64,000 nucleotides of DNA from Candidatus Poribacteria bacterium (GCA_963666305.1 OY762722.1:3478432-3542431); one strand, 5' to 3'; numbered from the stretch's first letter, positions 3,111 through 64,000 are shown. Translations and numbers: made by a program. Notes: generated from the letters alone by a model not told the origin.

Positions 3111-5061
3111 ACGCGGCGTAACCCTTCGAGCGGTGCTGATAGGCTTGGTGTTTATTCCTCTCAACGCCTATCTCGTTGTGCAATTAGAAACAGTGTGGGG
3201 TATCGGCGATCCCACGACAATGACGATATTCTTCAATGCTGTTTTCTGCTTCTTTCTCGTCATCTCCCTGAATCTTTTATTTCTCCGATGGATACCCAAA
3301 AATGCATTAAATCAAGGTGAGTTGCTGACAATTTACAGCATTTTGATGGTGTCTATATCGGTGAGCGGACAGGATTTCACGCATACTATTTTTGGCACCT
3401 TGGGCAACGCCCGATGGTTCGCGACACCTGAAAACGAATGGGCGACTTTGTTCCTAAGCTACCTTCCACAGTGGCTTGAACCTTCTGAAAAAGCATTGGA
3501 AGGCTATTTTTCGGGGGAGTCTTCATTCTATACGTCAAGAAACATCAAAGGATGGATTCAACCGTTAGTGTGGTGGACGCTCTTCCTAACGGTCCTGTGC
3601 TTTGTGATGATTTGCATCAATAGCATCATCCGCCGGCAATGGGTAGAACAGGAAAGATTGACATACCCATTAGTCTACTTACCCTTTGAAATGACGCAGG
3701 CGTACTTTTTCAAAAATCGGCTCTTATGGCTCGGTTTCGGCATCGCTGGAGCAATCAATCTTCTCAACGGTCTAAATGCACTCGTCCCCATTCTCCCTGA
3801 AATTCCGCTCTCCTATAATCTCGCGACACATTTTATAGAACGCCCTTGGAATAGCATTCGAGGCTGGCCCGGTATGCCTGTTCAAGCGAATCCTTTTATT
3901 ATCGGGCTTACCTTTCTAATTCCTCTTGGGCTGCTCTTTTCCTGCTGGTTTTTCTATTTTATATGGAAGTTACAGTACATCGTTGGCAGTATGGTTGGTG
4001 TTAACGTTCCACACTATCCGTTTGCAGATCAGCAGGTATTAGGCGGGTATTTAGGAATCGTTGTTGTAACAGTGTGGCTCGCGAGAAAGCATCTGTGGCG
4101 TGTCCTGAAAGGGGTGATAAACCCAACATCAGCCTCTGACGATGTCACCGAACCGATGCGATATCGGACAGCAGTCTGCGGAACACTGTTAGGCATCGCC
4201 TTCTTAATCGGTTTCTGCTATCAAGCTGGAATGTCCTTGAGTTTTGCCTTCGCATTTTTCGGCATTTACTATCTTATCCTGTTCGGATTTACGCGGATGC
4301 GGGCTGAGCTTGGTCCCCTTATGCATGGTATCCATTACTTCGGTCCTTTCCAACTCATTGTAGCAACAATTGGAAGTCATCGTATCTCCCCACAGACGCT
4401 AACTGTCGCAGCACCGTATTGGACACACACGAAAGAATTCCTAAACAAGCCGATGCCAGCCTATTTGGAAAGCTTCAAACTGGCGGAGCGAGCGAACGTT
4501 AACGCTGGCAACGTTGCGATAGATACGCGTAGACTCTGGAAGGTATGCCTGTTGGCAACGTTTCTATCAATTGCTGTAACACTCTGGGCATTCCTTGAAC
4601 TCGGCTACAAATGGGGCGGACCCGGGGCGTGGCGGGGAAACCTTGCTTACAACGCTATTGCGCGAGTGCTGAAACAACCGACAGATCCAGATTTCGCACA
4701 ACTCGGTGCGACAGGCTTTGGTATAGTATTCATCCTTGTTGGGACTGCCTTGCGGTTAAGATTTCTCTGGTGGTCCCTCTATCCACTTGCCTACCCACTC
4801 GCTGGCTATTACTATTTCAACTATCTCTGGTTTCCGTTTCTCGTCTGTTGGTTGGTAAAGTGGATAACTCTAAAATACGGCGGAATTCATGGGTATCGTA
4901 GAGCGGTGCCACTATTTCTCGGACTGGTTCTTGGAGACTTTGTTTTAGGATGTATATGGACAATCCTTGGCTTATTGACAGGTGAAGCGACGTATATGTT
5001 CCAAGAATTGGTTATATTTCCCCAGAACTTGTCAGTAGCAACCGAATATGCTTTGTCTTGA
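3100..5061 (+). CDS. Polytopic integral membrane protein of unknown function (>=12 predicted TM segments, aromatic-rich)
   Basis: A long ORF with many hydrophobic stretches (e.g. LIGLVFIPLNAYLVVQL, FFLVISLNLLFL, LFLTVLCFVMICI). No family motif was recognised. Confidence 0.6.
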   Translation: MTPKRGVTLRAVLIGLVFIPLNAYLVVQLETVWGIGDPTTMTIFFNAVFCFFLVISLNLLFLRWIPKNALNQGELLTIYSILMVSISVSGQDFTHTIFGTLGNARWFATPENEWATLFLSYLPQWLEPSEKALEGYFSGESSFYTSRNIKGWIQPLVWWTLFLTVLCFVMICINSIIRRQWVEQERLTYPLVYLPFEMTQAYFFKNRLLWLGFGIAGAINLLNGLNALVPILPEIPLSYNLATHFIERPWNSIRGWPGMPVQANPFIIGLTFLIPLGLLFSCWFFYFIWKLQYIVGSMVGVNVPHYPFADQQVLGGYLGIVVVTVWLARKHLWRVLKGVINPTSASDDVTEPMRYRTAVCGTLLGIAFLIGFCYQAGMSLSFAFAFFGIYYLILFGFTRMRAELGPLMHGIHYFGPFQLIVATIGSHRISPQTLTVAAPYWTHTKEFLNKPMPAYLESFKLAERANVNAGNVAIDTRRLWKVCLLATFLSIAVTLWAFLELGYKWGGPGAWRGNLAYNAIARVLKQPTDPDFAQLGATGFGIVFILVGTALRLRFLWWSLYPLAYPLAGYYYFNYLWFPFLVCWLVKWITLKYGGIHGYRRAVPLFLGLVLGDFVLGCIWTILGLLTGEATYMFQELVIFPQNLSVATEYALS

Positions 5062-8163: not shown

Positions 8164-10620
8164 CTAAAAACTTTTGGACCAAACCGTCGTAACTTGGATA
8201 CCTGTGCCAGATTCAAAGGCTTTTGCGACGTTAACTCTGAAAACAGAATCATCTCTTCCAGAATGTATACCCGGAACGTTGACGACAACAGAATTATCCT
8301 CTCCAAACTGTAGACCGATGCCGATATTTCCTTTAGGATCGAAGGTATATGCTGGACCAGATACATTCCAGACTTGTCCTTCATCAAAGAAGACAATAGC
8401 AAAAGCGTTTTTGAAAATACCCCAATCGAACAGATTGGATAAACGGTAGTGATATTCGACATTGAGTAGAAATCCCCGGTCTCCTGCAAACGTGTATGGA
8501 GAAGACGTATGTCCACTTTTGTAAGTTATTGGACCTTCAGATTCACTTTCCTGTCTATACCAAGGATACCCCCTGAGGCCTGCCATTCCACCAATGATAA
8601 ATTGGCGTTGAATTGGCAAAGTCGAGTTGGAAAACCCAAACAGAAGCCGAGTACGAACTCGGTTATTCTTTAAACGGAATGCATACCGAAAGTGCCATTG
8701 TAAACGTGTGAAATCAAAATCGGAGCCTACGGCGGCATTACTATGTTCAATGGAAAACGTGTTGTGCCAACCCACGGAACTCGTTATATTATTCAAATCG
8801 TATTGGAAGGTGAGACTCCGCATTTTGCCGGGGATTATTGATGGGTTTTCTCTTACGCGTAGCCTCGAGCCCCAATTGGCGACAAACCAATCTGTGCTTT
8901 TCTGCAGACTCGCATGTGATTCAGCAACCATTGCCAATTTGAAGAAATGGGATGGCATAATCGGTGACCACTGCAATGCGATCTCGGCACCTTGCCGCAG
9001 ATAGTAATTTTGAAAATCTGGTGTCCCAACGATACGTTGAAAAATGGGTAGTGGATTGTTGTAATTCGGAAAAAGTTCAGGAGCAACGACATCTGTCAAA
9101 CGGTGAATTTGTGCTGTGAGTCCGAGATTCCAAATGTAAGGTTTCCCCCAATTCGCTATGCCACCCATCCGGTAATGGACATGTGGGTTACCGAACGCAT
9201 AACTCGCCTTCCCAAAGAACTTTGAAGTTTGATCGCTCGATGAATCTCTGATGTTCCACGTCCAAAGGGGTCCGACATCCTTTCGTTTGCCGAGTTCAAA
9301 ACCAGTGCCGATTTCCCACCCCGTCACTCGATTAAATCCGAGGCGTAGCGGCGGATTGAGACCAAGATACGCATTCGTAGAAAGCGGTTTCTCATCAACA
9401 GTAATCGTCGCGACGTATTTTGAATTCTCCTCAGCTACCTGTAGGTTTAACTCGTCAAAGTAGGGCATCGCTTTATAGAGTGTTTTGAGTGCTTGTTCAA
9501 GGTCTTCAGAACCGTTTTCAAGTGCCTGTTGAATCTGTGCTTCCGATATCTTCTCATTTCCTTGAATGCGTATTTCGTGGATCGGGACTTCCCCTGCCAG
9601 AAATCGTGTGCCTACGGCTGAAAGTTGAGCATCTAATTCCTGTAAAACCAACTTGCCTGCTGTTGATTTGTGGACCTTGTTAGCCTGAGAACCAGAGATT
9701 TTCAAAGATTTTAGGACTGACAGGGTTCGCGTAATCGGCAGATCCGTCACAGTAATTATCGCAGTGTGCTTGGCATTCACTTCTTCAACGCGTAAAGATG
9801 CCTTTTTAGAATTATTGAGGAGCACGCTTGTAAGAATAGGCATGACTTCAGCAATGTCGCCAGATCCACTTTCGAGGACTTGCACAATGTTGGCACTTAC
9901 AATTTCGTCTACACCTTGGATTTGAATATCGTGAATTTGCTCACCATCAAAAATCCAATCCCATGACTCTGCCTGTTCTTGTATGTCTTGTAACGATGGG
10001 GATACCTCTTCAAGAGTATGGGTTGTAACAGGAGGTGTTGGCTCGACAACTTCAGGCGTTGAGGGCGGCGGAGGGGGTGCGATTTCCAGATCGCGAGGTT
10101 TAAGCGATGTCAGTTCAGAAATCTCAATACCGAGTTGATTGAGATTGAGTAGCAATTCACCAAGCTGTTTTTTCGGGATTTCGCCAACGATATTTATGAG
10201 ATACACATCGTCGTCACTTTTAACAATAACGAAGACCCCTTTGATAGTCTCATTTACTTGAAGGGTGTAGAGATGTAAATTGTCGTTTTCGAGATTGTCT
10301 TGAAAAGAGTGTCCTAATGTATTCCAGCCGCGCACCTTCAGGGTTTCTCCATAATATTGAACAACTTCCTTAAGATTGACAGACCGACTTCGATAACTGC
10401 GGAGATGTAAGTTGTCTATAGTGTTAAACAGCGGCACAATATTGGAAGTCGGTTCCTCCATCACGAGAGCAATGACACGTCTGTCTAAATCAAACTGGAA
10501 TTCAGAGGATGGCAGATTTGGAAAATCGAAGGCGACAGTGCCGTTATTCGACTGTGATTGCCCTGTAGAGGCAATGAGAAACAGGAGTGTTATCATTACT
10601 TTTGTAACAGCATATTTCAT
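8164..10620 (-). CDS. Omp85-superfamily outer-membrane beta-barrel with N-terminal extra domain and two POTRA-like domains (copy B)
   Basis: A signal peptide is present. The POTRA-like repeats are IHDIQIQGVDEIVS... and IHEIRIQGNEKISEAQIQQAL...VATITVDEKP. The Omp85 loop-6 motif is GGMAGLRGYP. The C-terminal ...VTTVWSKSF ends in Phe, a beta-barrel signature. Confidence 0.7.
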   Translation of the reverse strand: MKYAVTKVMITLLFLIASTGQSQSNNGTVAFDFPNLPSSEFQFDLDRRVIALVMEEPTSNIVPLFNTIDNLHLRSYRSRSVNLKEVVQYYGETLKVRGWNTLGHSFQDNLENDNLHLYTLQVNETIKGVFVIVKSDDDVYLINIVGEIPKKQLGELLLNLNQLGIEISELTSLKPRDLEIAPPPPPSTPEVVEPTPPVTTHTLEEVSPSLQDIQEQAESWDWIFDGEQIHDIQIQGVDEIVSANIVQVLESGSGDIAEVMPILTSVLLNNSKKASLRVEEVNAKHTAIITVTDLPITRTLSVLKSLKISGSQANKVHKSTAGKLVLQELDAQLSAVGTRFLAGEVPIHEIRIQGNEKISEAQIQQALENGSEDLEQALKTLYKAMPYFDELNLQVAEENSKYVATITVDEKPLSTNAYLGLNPPLRLGFNRVTGWEIGTGFELGKRKDVGPLWTWNIRDSSSDQTSKFFGKASYAFGNPHVHYRMGGIANWGKPYIWNLGLTAQIHRLTDVVAPELFPNYNNPLPIFQRIVGTPDFQNYYLRQGAEIALQWSPIMPSHFFKLAMVAESHASLQKSTDWFVANWGSRLRVRENPSIIPGKMRSLTFQYDLNNITSSVGWHNTFSIEHSNAAVGSDFDFTRLQWHFRYAFRLKNNRVRTRLLFGFSNSTLPIQRQFIIGGMAGLRGYPWYRQESESEGPITYKSGHTSSPYTFAGDRGFLLNVEYHYRLSNLFDWGIFKNAFAIVFFDEGQVWNVSGPAYTFDPKGNIGIGLQFGEDNSVVVNVPGIHSGRDDSVFRVNVAKAFESGTGIQVTTVWSKSF

Positions 10621-59903: not shown

Positions 59904-61232
59904 ATGCCAAAAAACAGTATTCTCTCACAGATGCCGATGGACCTCGGTGACAACTTGAAACTCCGATTTGCTACTCCTGCCGACACGGATGCTCTCGCTG
60001 AATTCAATACCCGTCTTCATGAAGAAGTGAGCGTGGATCCAGGCACCCGAGACTTGATGTCAGGAGATCACCCCACCTGCAAAGCAAGCGATTTTACCGT
60101 CGTTGAAGATACGAAGGCACGGAAAATCGTGTCATCTCTCTGTCTCATCTCGCAGACCTGGACGTATAGTGGGATCCCTTTCAAGTTCGGGCAACCCGAA
60201 TTCGTCGCAACTGAACCTGAGTACCGCAGAAGAGGCTTAGTCCGCAAGCAGTTCGAGGTCATCCACGCGTTGAGCGAGGCACGCGGTGAATTGATGCAAG
60301 GTATCACAGGTATCCCATGGTATTACCGATTGTTCGGATATGAGATGGCACTGGATATGGAGGCAGAGCGTGTTATTGACGGGATACACATCCCAGCATT
60401 GAAAAAAGGGCAGAACGAGACGTGTCGGCTCCGACCACGAACGGATTCAGATAATGCTTTCATTCAAGACATTTATGAGCGTACTATTGAGCGCAAGGTC
60501 TTTGTTTGCCATCGGACATCGGAGATGTGGGAATATGAATTCACTGGACGTTCTGCGGGAAGTGAAGCACGGCATGAATTCTTACTCATCGAAGATATGG
60601 AAGGGACGCGACTCGGTTATGTCCAACATTTTCAATGGTGTTACGAAAATTTTCTTATCATGCAAATGGAGCTTAAACCGGGGGTTGGCTGTCTACATCA
60701 TATCCCATCACTACTGCGAGCGTTGTGGAAAAAGGCAGAGACGACACCAATTGTCGCCGAAAATGACAACCCGAAAGCAACAGGTGTGCAGTTCATGTTG
60801 GGACGTGAGCATCCGGTCTATCAGGCATTACCCAAAGGCGTTGTTCGTAAGGAGTCGCCCTACGCGTGGTATATCCGCGTGCCAAATTTAACAGCGTTTC
60901 TACGGCATATCCAACCCGCACTCGAAAAACACCTCATCGGCACCATCGCAGAGGGTTACACGGGTGAGCTTAAACTCAACTTCTATCGAAGTGGGGTACA
61001 CCTCAAATTTGAACGAGGTCGCGTCACAGACATTGCCGATTGGACTCCGAAAGACGTTGAGGAGGGGGATGCGGCGTTCCCTGAATTAACTTTTTTACAA
61101 CTGCTGTGCGGACGGTGTCGAACAGAAGAGTTGGTATCAAATTTCGTTGATTGCTGGACGAACGGCAGTTCTCCGGCAGTCCTACTCGATTGCCTGTTCC
61201 CGACATTCGCTGGCGAGGTTTGGCATCTCTAA
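59904..61232 (+). CDS. Eis-like GNAT acetyltransferase (GNAT + C-terminal SCP2-like region)
   Basis: The GNAT core is VATEPEYRRRGLVRKQFEVIHALSEARGELMQGITGIPWYYRLFGYEMA, an RRRGL...YxxFGY pattern as in Eis. Total length is 442 aa. Confidence 0.55.
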   Translation: MPKNSILSQMPMDLGDNLKLRFATPADTDALAEFNTRLHEEVSVDPGTRDLMSGDHPTCKASDFTVVEDTKARKIVSSLCLISQTWTYSGIPFKFGQPEFVATEPEYRRRGLVRKQFEVIHALSEARGELMQGITGIPWYYRLFGYEMALDMEAERVIDGIHIPALKKGQNETCRLRPRTDSDNAFIQDIYERTIERKVFVCHRTSEMWEYEFTGRSAGSEARHEFLLIEDMEGTRLGYVQHFQWCYENFLIMQMELKPGVGCLHHIPSLLRALWKKAETTPIVAENDNPKATGVQFMLGREHPVYQALPKGVVRKESPYAWYIRVPNLTAFLRHIQPALEKHLIGTIAEGYTGELKLNFYRSGVHLKFERGRVTDIADWTPKDVEEGDAAFPELTFLQLLCGRCRTEELVSNFVDCWTNGSSPAVLLDCLFPTFAGEVWHL

Positions 61233-61284
61233 TTGGTTGTCCGTCGTCAGTCTTCAGTTAAGAGATGGCTTGGTAAAACAAAGT

Positions 61285-61317
61285 CTCTCTTTAACCGATA
61301 ACCGATAACTGATAACC
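61285..61317 (+). promoter_or_regulatory. Tandem-heptamer leader element, Y-variant (CTCTCTTTAACCGATAACCGATAACTGATAACC)
   Basis: It lies directly upstream of the 61327 gene. The same variant (in gene orientation) lies upstream of argB (55891..55920), comEC (59744..59763) and the ABC ATPase (41166..41189). Confidence 0.4.
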
Positions 61318-61326
61318 ACTAAAACA

Positions 61327-61896
61327 ATGGTTACCCAATCGCATGTCGTCCTCAACATAGCACTCCTCTCAAAGCGAAACAAACCTTTCCTACATTTCTA
61401 CGCGTTCATCGGTGCTGTCCTTCCTGACCTGCCGATGTTCGTTTTCTTTGCAGTCGAAACTTTTATCCTTAAAACACCACAGCGTGAACTCTGGGGTTCC
61501 CGATACTTCATGGAGTCGTGGCAAACTTTCTTTGACATTTTCAACGCCATCCCGTTGATTCTGATCGTCTTGGGGATTGGATATTATCTACTAAACTCCG
61601 AGAGAATCGTCGTTTTTGCGTGGAGCATGCTCCTCCATTGCGGCTTTGATTTTCTGACGCATCACGATGACGGACATCATCACTTTTTCCCGCTCTCCGA
61701 TTTTGTCTTTGAAAGCCCGATTTCTTATTGGGACAGGGATCACTACGGCAATATCGTCGCGCCGATAGAACGATTGGTTATGCTTGCCGCGTCTATCTAT
61801 CTGTTCCGACGACTGAAAACCCGAATAGCACGTTGGGCACTGGTTATCATCAATGTTCTGTTCTTAGGTTCTTATCTCCTCTTTTTTCTCCGGTAG
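61327..61896 (+). CDS. Small polytopic membrane protein, possibly DUF457/YdjM-like metal-dependent hydrolase
   Basis: It has four or more hydrophobic segments, plus an LPDLPMF motif and a His-rich HHDDGHHH motif. The family assignment is tentative. Confidence 0.4.
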   Translation: MVTQSHVVLNIALLSKRNKPFLHFYAFIGAVLPDLPMFVFFAVETFILKTPQRELWGSRYFMESWQTFFDIFNAIPLILIVLGIGYYLLNSERIVVFAWSMLLHCGFDFLTHHDDGHHHFFPLSDFVFESPISYWDRDHYGNIVAPIERLVMLAASIYLFRRLKTRIARWALVIINVLFLGSYLLFFLR

Positions 61897-62397
61897 GTGT
61901 AGCCTCTCTGTCACGATTTCCTGTCCAATCGTCCATCTTCCTGTAGGAGCGATCTCCTGATCGCGACTTCCGTAGAGTGCAGATGCTATTTGTCAGAATC
62001 GCGGATTGTTTGAATGTGTCAAGTTTCAGAGTATTCAGAGTAAATCCGAAAATCGATGGGGTCTCAAAACGACTGTAACCTTAGACGCTCATTGGGTTTT
62101 GAACGATTTTGAAAGAAGATACTGAAATGCTTACTCTGAAATTTTAGCATCAGGGGTAGGGGTCGAAGTAATGCTGTCTGAATGAAAAATCCATCCGTTT
62201 TCACGGAGGCTTCACGGAGATTTTCGCCGGTATATGCGGGCAGTGGGTGCCACGATGCAATATGTTGACCCCTTCCCCCGAAAAAACGGATGTGAATATA
62301 AAATTAACGTATCGTGTCAGTGTTTTTAGAACCGGATGTGCTTATCTTTTTTGTAGGTACCAATAGAGATTTTCTTCCCATGCTTAAAGACAGATTC

Positions 62398-63615
62398 TCA
62401 ATCTTGGCTTGGTATAAGGCAATCAAATGCGCGTTGTAATGCTTCGCGTAACTTTTGTTCATCCCGAATCATCTCTTGTACTCTCCAAGAATTAGGTGGA
62501 CTACCGTGTGCCAGGGCATTGCGAATCTGATTAAGATTTTCACAGGCTTCACGATTATCTCCAGGTCTCTGTCCGTTTCTTAAGGACCACTGCTGAACTT
62601 CAGATTGAATGTCTTGATCTTGACGGATATAAGGATCCTTTGAATCAAGTCCTTTTTTCTTACACACCACTGTAACAACCGCTTCCCAACCGAATAGTGC
62701 TGCACGTACATAATCGCGACGTCTCAAGTATTGACGGGCTAATTCGGCTTGCTGTTTGGAAAGGTCACCAAGGTCAACCCACGCTAAACGCTCAGCCAAT
62801 CTTCGTTGAAACAGGCCAGATGCTCCGGCGAGTTTAGACGCAAAGACAGGTCTGAACCTACGAATCTCATCGGCTGCTGCAGATAAATTGAGCGTCCGCT
62901 CGTGAAAAGCAGCATTTTCAAGATGTCTCGCTTTATCTGCTTCCACGCCATCTTTAGTGAGGAGCGAGCCGAACACCCGATAATCTCCGGTCGCGTCAAA
63001 GCGGTTGAGAGCATCCAACCATTGTCGTACCCGGTCAAGACCGTCTAATTTAAGTACAGGAGTGATACCTTCTTGAGTCATTTCGAGGGCACCGTACCAC
63101 AGATTTTTCACTTCAAGCCCACGAACACGCGAGAGCATGAAAGCCGAAAGGAAGCCAATCATGCCGAAATGACGAAACCCATGTGTCAAATCGAAATTGA
63201 CAACTCCTTCAGGAACACTGTTGGCAACGACATCTAATATTTTGTACTGTTCGCTCTCATTTTCTCCAAACGGGATCAGGCGTGGCACAACTTCACAACC
63301 GACAGCGCGACACATTAGACTCGTAACATTATCCAAATGTTCTTGCTCAATTTCGCCTTCAGTTTCGACATCAATGAGTTTAAGTCGCGCCTCCTCTTCC
63401 TCACCTTCCGCTGCCAGATTTTCTACTAAAACCCCCCATTGGCTGCTATTCGTGCCCAAAATAACGGTGCGGTCTGGATTGATATATTCTGCTAATGCAA
63501 GTCCAAAAAACGCCGTTGTTTTCGTGGATTTATCTGGAAACTCGTACGTGGTTTCCCGGTATCCAGTTGTTTTGTTTTCCCTACCCCTACCGAGGAATGT
63601 CACAAATGTTTTCAT
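62398..63615 (-). CDS. csx1: Csx1/Csm6-family CARF-HEPN protein (cas_TM1812 / DxTHG family)
   Basis: The N-terminus is MKTFVTFLGRG...TGYRETTYEF (TM1812-family start). The DxTHG motif is NFDLTHGFRHFGMIG. The C-terminal HEPN Rx4H motif is NQIRNALAHG. Confidence 0.65.
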   Translation of the reverse strand: MKTFVTFLGRGRENKTTGYRETTYEFPDKSTKTTAFFGLALAEYINPDRTVILGTNSSQWGVLVENLAAEGEEEEARLKLIDVETEGEIEQEHLDNVTSLMCRAVGCEVVPRLIPFGENESEQYKILDVVANSVPEGVVNFDLTHGFRHFGMIGFLSAFMLSRVRGLEVKNLWYGALEMTQEGITPVLKLDGLDRVRQWLDALNRFDATGDYRVFGSLLTKDGVEADKARHLENAAFHERTLNLSAAADEIRRFRPVFASKLAGASGLFQRRLAERLAWVDLGDLSKQQAELARQYLRRRDYVRAALFGWEAVVTVVCKKKGLDSKDPYIRQDQDIQSEVQQWSLRNGQRPGDNREACENLNQIRNALAHGSPPNSWRVQEMIRDEQKLREALQRAFDCLIPSQD

Positions 63616-64000
63616 TCAAATGTTTCTCCATCAGTCAAAGGTTGCCAATGGCAGAGAAAGAAATCAAGTTCGTCTAATGTGGGTTGATATGTGCTGATGT
63701 CGGATGGATCTTGTATGCGGTGACGCAGCTTAACAATGAGCATCACATCTCCCGTTGTAAGTTCTGCTGGCTCCCGTGACACTTCAATCTCAATACCTGT
63801 AAGCTGCTCAATCAATCGAGCGGTTTCAGGGTAACCGATATAACTTTGAAGGTCGCCAGTTGCGACGGCTTCATGGAGAACTTTTTGGAAAACTGCTTTA
63901 GAAATACGTTTTAGTGTATACACGCCTTCGGTTGGCATGACAGCTGAATTGAGTAAAAGCACCATACGTGTTGTGTTCAGCACGTGCGATGAATCGCACG
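63612..64000 (-). CDS. DUF1874 (STIV B116 / AcrIII-1 / Crn2-like) protein; start uncertain and frame open to window edge
   Basis: MVLLLNSAVMPTEGVYTLKRIS...LQSYIGYPETARLIEQLTGIEIEVSREPAELTTGDVMLIVKLRHRI resembles the B116 family pattern (LTNAF...AIGHDSTINL...G..L..NR.E...GDEALI). Its stop overlaps the csx1-like gene. The candidate starts are an ATG at 63965 and a GTG at 63983, or the gene may extend beyond nt 64000. Confidence 0.5.
   Translation of the reverse strand, partial: CDSSHVLNTTRMVLLLNSAVMPTEGVYTLKRISKAVFQKVLHEAVATGDLQSYIGYPETARLIEQLTGIEIEVSREPAELTTGDVMLIVKLRHRIQDPSDISTYQPTLDELDFFLCHWQPLTDGETFE

Follow-up and report, generated by a model that had tools for sequence, protein, structure and literature searches.

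A predicted Crn2 variant with tyrosine in place of the catalytic histidine, paired with csx1 in Candidatus Poribacteria

Ring nucleases decide the outcome of type III CRISPR immunity, which is either recovery of the cell or its dormancy or death. DUF1874 is the one family used by viruses (AcrIII-1) as well as by cells (Crn2), and its published mechanism rests on one histidine: H47 of SIRV1 gp29, the general acid in the published account, is called absolutely conserved there, and the H47A exchange causes a rate loss of >2500-fold (bioRxiv 10.1101/778746). In the Csx1-Crn2 fusion protein of Marinitoga, described by Samolygo et al. 2020 (PMC7293037) and Zhang et al. 2024 (PMC11317161), H495A abolishes cleavage of cyclic tetra-adenylate (cA4; PMC11317161). 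Crn2 accompanying type III loci was reported for 49 species by Athukoralage et al. and for 7 loci by Hoikkala et al. (PMC12409355). Here I analyse a DUF1874 gene and an adjoining csx1 gene from a Candidatus Poribacteria bacterium (GCA_963666305.1 OY762722.1:3478432-3542431; this whole stretch of 64,000 nucleotides is called the window hereafter). The DUF1874 gene lies upstream and csx1 downstream, both occupy the last 1.6 kb of the window, and the DUF1874 product belongs to a large conserved branch that has tyrosine where the catalytic histidine is expected.

Profile, PDB and fold searches gave concordant results for both proteins, and by these the small protein is a member of the DUF1874/Crn2/AcrIII-1 family. 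It matched Pfam PF08960 (STIV_B116-like) with an E-value of 2e-11 and 44.3 bits against a gathering cutoff of 26, which bore out the original prediction, generated by a model from the sequence alone, that the open reading frame (ORF) overlapping a Csx1-like gene on its upstream side is DUF1874-like. A phmmer search against the PDB returned AFV3-109 (E 2.5e-6), the Crn2 domain of Csx1-Crn2, STIV B116 and, weakly, SIRV1 gp29, and a profile built from 150 family representatives lifted these matches to 1e-18, 3.5e-16, 1e-9 and 6.5e-7, respectively; the structures matched by the clade profile were 8Y7F, 2J6B, 2J85, 2X4I and 6SCF. The AlphaFold2 model based on the 150-representative alignment had the DUF1874 fold with a predicted local distance difference test (pLDDT) score of 94, and an alignment-free prediction (pLDDT 61) was set aside for it. 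Two start codons are conceivable (Table 1), and the shorter form is favoured because a 100%-identical database protein (P0121) is 117 aa long.

The residues by which the known family members contact cA4 were all found in the small protein (N6, S7, T48, R64, K79, L80 and R83). These contacts are N8, T50, R66 and R85 in gp29, and N451, S452, R514, K529, L530 and R533 in Crn2 (PMC11317161 for Crn2), the latter mapping onto N6, S7, R64, K79, L80 and R83 of the window protein without a single exchange; N6, R64 and R83 reach a conservation of 90% or more across the 150 representatives. The acid pair, in contrast, is changed. Four independent alignments to solved structures placed Tyr45 (S-Y-I-G-Y45-P-E-T) on the IGH histidine of AFV3-109, STIV B116 and Csx1-Crn2, and on the alanine of the H495A crystal form, so that the tyrosine which the original prediction had suspected from a comparison of IGYPET with IGHDST proved correct. 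The glutamate that orients this histidine (E536, equivalent to E88 in AcrIII-1) is Asp86 in the window protein, with Asp or Asn as the replacement in the branch. Because the catalytic His and Glu are both replaced, the protein was filed as a variant branch and not as a canonical member, and since the contact residues are kept while H495 corresponds to Tyr and E536 to Asp86, the predicted ligand pocket is intact with the acid pair alone changed.

Tyr45 was present in 121/121 sequences (the query and its 120 nearest homologs, 62-100% identity), and 16 further positions were invariant in the same set, evidence of purifying selection. An exhaustive HMMER search of 1.84 billion representatives gave 506 clusters at E≤1e-3, and residues were counted in the best 150, aligned with the query and three solved proteins. 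The key position in these 154 sequences was Tyr in 145, His in five (three of which are the solved reference proteins), Cys in two, and Asn and Trp in one each; hence Tyr is found in ~96% of the best 150 of the 506 clusters, and the Tyr branch comprises at least ~145 clusters at 50% identity. The tyrosine is a character of the clade and not a sign of decay. The consensus of the Tyr clade (LLNSAMMP...G.Y...SYIGYP.TA...R...GD..L..KLKYRV.DP..KG) also departs from the canonical R-L-E-E-G in the lid loop, since it reads RV.DP..KG there, with R-(V/I)-x-D/N-P-x-x-K as the general pattern. Position 82, a His in the window protein, is occupied by Tyr in the majority of clade members and by Gln in certain Poribacteria. 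That the tyrosine defines a large conserved DUF1874 branch, viral contigs included, goes beyond what had been predicted.

Scanning IMG/VR with two clade motifs resulted in 30 viral contigs, 29 of which had Tyr at the key position within an xxIGY or xxVGY motif, with L039 reading SYISY. In one viral contig (L029), genes for a small terminase subunit, a DnaB helicase and a primase adjoin the Tyr-clade gene. Among isolated phages (INPHARED), tblastn with the window protein gave no match, and a viral Tyr-clade query found His-type proteins only, at ≤35% identity. By these sequence matches the Tyr branch repeats the virus/host duality of the canonical family, so far in uncultured material only, and its carriage by viral contigs speaks for the Tyr form being effective in countering cA4 signalling. 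The idea that the His-to-Tyr exchange is a host-specific 'detuning' was weakened, as the Tyr form also occurs on viral contigs. Two representatives (P0352 and P0309) combine Tyr-clade DUF1874 and NUMOD3 homing-endonuclease motifs in one predicted protein, and other Tyr-clade representatives stand alongside HTH/RstR-like repressor matches; these associations probably reflect neighbouring genes in phages or gene calls that were merged.

An identity of the small protein as Csx16 was considered and rejected, since the curated models TIGR02620 and Pfam Cas_VVA1548 did not match it at E≤1, and the PADLOC 'Csx16' match is explained by the model PDLC01147 scoring DUF1874 proteins. The 150 clade representatives matched 35 NCBIfam families, and the 25 of these that were listed include no Csx16 model. 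PDLC01147 bears the label 'Csx16' and recognises canonical His-type AcrIII-1/DUF1874 proteins at 1e-17 to 1e-19; 'Csx16' annotations derived from it may be Crn2/AcrIII-1.

The downstream gene encodes a predicted Csx1 CARF-HEPN effector. Its 405-aa product matched NCBIfam TIGR02221 (cas_TM1812; E 4.6e-46, 157 bits against a cutoff of 76, residues 3-219), the DxTHG domain TIGR02549 (E 1.5e-5) and, at full length, PADLOC CARF2--CARF_HEPN (E 9e-133, residues 1-400), and a profile of 40 csx1 orthologs had Marinitoga Csx1-Crn2 (8Y6Z, E 2e-9) as its sole match in the PDB. The original prediction of a Csx1-like CARF-HEPN protein was confirmed by the TIGR02221 and PADLOC matches, and the motifs it quoted (FVTFLGRG, FDLTHGFRH and RNALAH, besides IGYPET in the small protein) are present in the translations; among the profiles it had named for checking, TIGR02221 and PF08960 matched the respective proteins, and a Pfam search of the 405-aa protein gave no match, PF09455 included. 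A scan of species-representative genomes placed csx1 in Poribacteria.

Conservation of Csx1 was counted in 115 orthologs of 54-93% identity. In CARF motif I, L8 and G9 never vary and position 10 (R10) is always R or K across the 115; this LGRG resembles the LGKG motif I of Csx1-Crn2 (residues 10-17) by position and sequence and not by alignment, and the K12A exchange in the latter abolished activity (PMC11317161). The residues D142, T144, H145, F147, R148 and H149 of CARF motif II are likewise without variation, and 114/115 orthologs have G146. In the alignment to Csx1-Crn2, the counterpart of R148 is R132, a residue that projects into the ring of cA4 in the crystal structure and whose exchange (R132A) kills activity (PMC11317161). 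The HEPN motif R365-x4-H370 aligns with the catalytic R401-x4-H406 of Csx1-Crn2 (8Y6Z), and R365 and H370 are each kept in 114/115 orthologs, a conservation on which the predicted assignment had been staked. The nearest solved relative and the cA4-specific partner family both point to cA4 as the probable messenger of this Csx1.

Table 1. Position of the genes, codons, motifs and hairpins of the csx1 locus, counted from the first nucleotide of the window
Feature	Position	Strand	Description or basis
csx1	62398..63615	minus	405-aa ORF, ATG start; predicted CARF-HEPN effector, TM1812/Csx2-type Csx1, CARF2 class
crn2-like gene	63612..63965	minus	117-aa predicted DUF1874 protein of the Tyr clade, ATG start
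Alternative GTG start of the DUF1874 gene	63983	minus	ORF 63612..63983, 123 aa
ATGA stop/start overlap of the DUF1874 gene and csx1	63612..63615	minus	4 nt, read from the sequence
Tyr45 codon	63831..63833	minus	Position of the general-acid His (H47 in AcrIII-1, H495 in Csx1-Crn2)
CARF motif I LGRG (L8-G9-R10-G11)	63583..63594	minus	Motif conservation in 115 orthologs
CARF motif II DxTHG (D142-L-T-H-G-F-R148-H149)	63169..63192	minus	TIGR02549
HEPN catalytic motif (R365-N-A-L-A-H370)	62506..62523	minus	Alignment to Csx1-Crn2
csm5-crn2 intergenic spacer with small hairpin (CGTGCGA-TTCA-TCGCACG)	63966..64000	minus	Conserved in relatives
Terminator-like hairpin and T tract	62184..62207	minus	~190 nt 3' of csx1; consensus scan

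The stop codon of the DUF1874 gene and the start codon of csx1 overlap (Table 1), which by its sequence is a translational coupling of the two genes; the genes also overlap in the gene calls of L009, L010, L011-L017 and L054. Upstream of the DUF1874 ATG, the window holds just 35 nt more, and related loci were used to assess what lies beyond. In ~15 relatives whose sequence extends upstream, all of them from Poribacteria or unassigned metagenomes, the pair directly follows cas10-csm2-csm3-csm4-csm5, and tblastn located a csm5 gene that adjoins the pair on its upstream side in L001/L010, L005, L006, L007, L011-L017, L019, L020 and L021. On closed or long contigs the order is cas1-cas2, array, cas10(HD+GGDD)-csm2-csm3-csm4-csm5 and DUF1874-csx1, with a large CRISPR array and cas1/cas2 visible in several relatives. 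Their array repeat of 30 nt reads CTTTTAATCGAACCAGTATGGAAT[TC]GAAAC and is present in 14-66 copies, and the GGDD and HD motifs of Cas10 are kept in the four relatives checked (L010, L011, L017 and L020). Because the pair follows these genes in ~15 related loci, the operon very probably continues beyond nt 64000, and I infer that csm genes are present in this genome. The near-identity of the window's last 35 nt to the spacer after the intact csm5 of L017 and the downstream genes shared with most of these loci point the same way. As the original prediction had stated, no CRISPR array is in view: neither CRISPR repeats nor tandem arrays were found in the 64-kb window, and the relatives' repeat was absent from it at ≤3 mismatches. 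Of the two possibilities that the prediction had left side by side, a stand-alone module or a locus continuing past the window's end, the synteny strongly favours the second, and the first was seen as a remnant form in L009.

The pair was not confined to one kind of interference module. In L003 (820-13477), a Tyr-type pair closes a type III-D locus (Cas10, Csx10, Csm2, three Csm3-like proteins, Csx19 and Csx21), after which come a CARF4-PD-DExK (Can-like) effector and Cas6. In L054, the pair overlaps as in the window, and its DUF1874 protein and Csx1 are 50% and 60% identical to those of the window. The gene orders indicate that DUF1874 and csx1 travel as a unit, or cassette. Locus L003 has two cA4-type effectors and one putative ring nuclease.

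The reading I prefer, with moderate confidence, is that the pair forms the accessory signalling end of a Poribacteria type III-A (Csm) operon, in which the small protein would cleave or otherwise remove cA4. Just beyond nt 64000 would lie csm5-csm4-csm3-csm2-cas10, a CRISPR array carrying the repeat CTTTTAATCGAACCAGTATGGAATTGAAAC, and cas2-cas1. On binding a phage transcript, the Csm complex would let the GGDD cyclase of Cas10 make cA4, which would bind to the CARF domain of dimeric Csx1 via LGRG and DLTHGFR148H and turn on the HEPN RNase (R365-x4-H370), with non-specific RNA degradation as the outcome. The coupled 117-aa protein, as a predicted dimer of the Crn2/AcrIII-1 fold, would bind cA4 by the usual contact residues, compete for it and remove it, thereby setting an activation threshold and switching Csx1 off. 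Either the hydroxyl of the tyrosine or geometry alone would replace the imidazole, probably with different kinetics. That the Tyr-type protein still cleaves cA4 is a part of this reading which I would put only slightly ahead of its opposite; an invariant residue with a protonatable hydroxyl at the catalytic spot, a conserved, remodelled lid loop and the existence of His-less ring nucleases in other families speak for cleavage.

Several points weigh against this reading. The general-acid His, which is the sole residue shown to be catalytic (by the effects of H47A and H495A), is lost, and no compensating His conserved in the Tyr clade was found. The searchable literature, outside of which most subscription papers fall, yielded neither an assayed Tyr-type member nor a mention of a Tyr-type DUF1874 protein. 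Apart from the pair, the 64-kb window contains no cas genes, and csm genes were seen in relatives only. The locus with the csx1 nearest to that of the window (L009, 93%) has its csm operon deleted and retains only the last 33 csm5 codons (9503-9601) next to an intact DUF1874-csx1 pair (L009:8900-9660), and on a Poribacteria chromosome (L004, 9953-10001) csm5 is followed by csx1 after a 47-nt gap without a DUF1874 gene. The small protein is therefore dispensable in at least one lineage, and L004 amounts to a natural 'knock-out'.

The loss of the histidine without a conserved substitute, together with the retention of all cA4-contact residues, would suit a Tyr-type DUF1874 that is a non-enzymatic, high-affinity cA4 binder, a buffer or sponge which is made at a fixed ratio with Csx1 and sets the threshold of the RNase; in phages, the same protein would be a sponge-type anti-CRISPR. 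The catalytically dead H495A Crn2 domain binds cA4 at ~60 nM, ~25-fold tighter than CARF alone (~1.6 uM; PMC11317161), the ATGA coupling would provide the stoichiometric co-expression, and sponge inhibition of nucleotide signalling is an established phage strategy, with Csx15 suggested to act in this way (PMC12409355). However, a pure binder would not need the Tyr position to be fixed, and the invariant Tyr and the conserved Asp/Asn-Pro and Lys of the lid loop suggest an active site that was remodelled and not lost. A stoichiometric sponge also cannot reset signalling after infection, and many ring nucleases, namely Crn1 and CARF domains, function without a general-acid His. On balance I consider a sponge rather unlikely. 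Whether by cleavage or by sequestration, the 'SYIGY' branch could form a mechanistically distinct class of cA4 antagonists (a Tyr ring nuclease with a lid-loop Asp/Asn and Lys, or a non-hydrolytic sponge). Uncultured phages would employ it as an anti-CRISPR, and Poribacteria would have wired it to Csx1 as a stoichiometric threshold-setter, a generalisation that is possible but which I put forward tentatively.

Two further explanations question the setting of the gene and not its chemistry. Orphan pairs do arise, since L009 lost its csm operon yet keeps the pair, and the pair could likewise be an orphan here, either as a remnant or acting in trans with a type III locus elsewhere in the 5.6-Mb chromosome. 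Following its csm5 remnant, L009 carries an HTH_Tnp_4 gene, two small ORFs and an HsdM-type methylase, with no CRISPR array within 10 kb, and the last 35 nt of the window are as near to the spacer that follows this remnant as to the intact loci; the lack of cas genes and arrays elsewhere in the window fits an orphan, too. Yet csm5 is intact beside the pair in ~15 of the relatives with upstream sequence, the flanking genes of the window are nearer to the intact L020 than to L009 (96% and 87%, respectively, for a 189-aa gene downstream), and both window genes are intact with their catalytic and ligand-binding residues all kept as far as Csx1 and the cA4 pocket are concerned, which makes an orphan improbable. 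More remote still is a phage-derived anti-CRISPR that has lodged in the locus and disables it instead of regulating it for the host. The family is thought to be of viral origin (bioRxiv 10.1101/778746; PMC12409355) and Tyr-clade genes do occur on viral contigs, but no mobile-element genes accompany the DUF1874 gene, its position, orientation and overlap with csx1 are constant down to 60% csx1 identity, and it is kept behind both III-A and III-D modules. Moreover, with up to 66 repeats the relatives' arrays have the great length that an active locus would be expected to show, and I regard this explanation as highly improbable.

Regarding the sequences around the genes, the spacer upstream of the DUF1874 gene (63966-64000) differs from that after the intact csm5 stop of L017 by 2 mismatches in 35 nt and is equally near to that of L009. 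Its hairpin did not fold better than shuffled sequence (z -1.3), and may be a processing or attenuation site between the interference and the accessory genes. In L007, L019 and L020, ~33 nt are inserted in the loop of this hairpin (7 bp). The terminator-like site downstream of csx1 is weak evidence of a terminator, as the consensus scan found 1 site with 1.7 expected by chance. A palindromic element, CTGTAGGAGCGATCTCCTGATCGCGAC, lies at 61941-61967 (+) of the window, just 3' of the 189-aa gene, and three CTGTAGGAGCGATCTCCTGATCGCGAC-like copies with a spacing of 66-78 nt are located upstream of cas2 in L010 (12-184). The palindrome folded no better than shuffled sequence, and it could be a repetitive extragenic palindrome (REP)-like element or the edge of a second repeat array. 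An Rfam search of the window gave no match, and the terminal sequence of the window was not found in JGI metagenomes when these were scanned for it as an exact pattern.

The genes downstream of csx1 that are common to the window and most relatives encode a 189-aa membrane protein, a 442-aa acetyltransferase, ComEC, an alcohol dehydrogenase (ADH) and an amino-acid kinase. Identity across 59904-63615 of the window is mosaic: csx1 is 93% identical to that of L009 and 85% to that of L020, and for the 189-aa gene the order is reversed, which suggests recombination swapping the accessory cassette between lineages. Among the relatives, the csm2 (Cas11) product of L016 (6296-6850) has 184 aa and a cold-shock domain (PF00313) besides Csm2_III-A, and the Cas10 of this locus is ~70 aa shorter than in its sister loci. 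The stretch that separates the CRISPR array from cas10 in L010 contains eight tandem copies (3307-3438) of the 12-mer ACCAGTATCTTT, which has ACCAGTAT in common with the CRISPR repeat.

A large and conserved Tyr branch implies that the accepted mechanism of DUF1874 is not general, or that a part of the family sequesters cA4, and either case affects ring nuclease counts in genome surveys. The branch also provides a natural variant with which to examine how an anti-CRISPR enzyme is tamed by cells for their own ends; if the Tyr form were slower, it would be a natural case of the 'detuned' anti-CRISPR which, in the proposal of Athukoralage et al., cells would require.

Compared with described systems, the locus is nearest to the Marinitoga Csx1-Crn2 fusion (8Y6Z/8Y7F/8Y7G; PMC7293037, PMC11317161), which has the same modules, a CARF2-type Csx1 with a HEPN RNase and a cA4-binding DUF1874 domain, and is the best solved match for both window proteins, with the equivalents of CARF R132, HEPN R401/H406 and the Crn2 contacts all present. 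The window differs in having two separate, coupled genes with DUF1874 first, whereas DUF1874 is fused C-terminally in Marinitoga, and in the replacement of H495 by Tyr and of E536 by Asp, at an identity of ~20-23%. AcrIII-1 (SIRV1 gp29 6SCF, AFV3-109 2J6B and STIV B116 2J85) is viral, in contrast to the host-encoded window gene inside a predicted cas operon, which has Tyr for His47 and a different lid loop. Csx16 (VVA1548 family) is a small cA4-specific ring nuclease as well, associated with or fused to Csx1 and distantly DUF1874-like (PMC12409355). The stand-alone bacterial Crn2 proteins (Crenothrix, Methylovulum, Thioalkalivibrio and others) likewise combine a DUF1874 gene with a cellular type III locus and a cA4-dependent effector; Crenothrix Crn2 is the sole CRISPR-linked entry in the published alignment in which His47 is described as absolutely conserved, whereas the Poribacteria proteins belong to the Tyr branch. 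Crn2 beside Csx1 in a type III locus is thus already known, and the Csx1 and the architecture of the locus are ordinary; what is new in this otherwise ordinary, predicted type III cA4 signalling module is the putative Tyr variant of Crn2.

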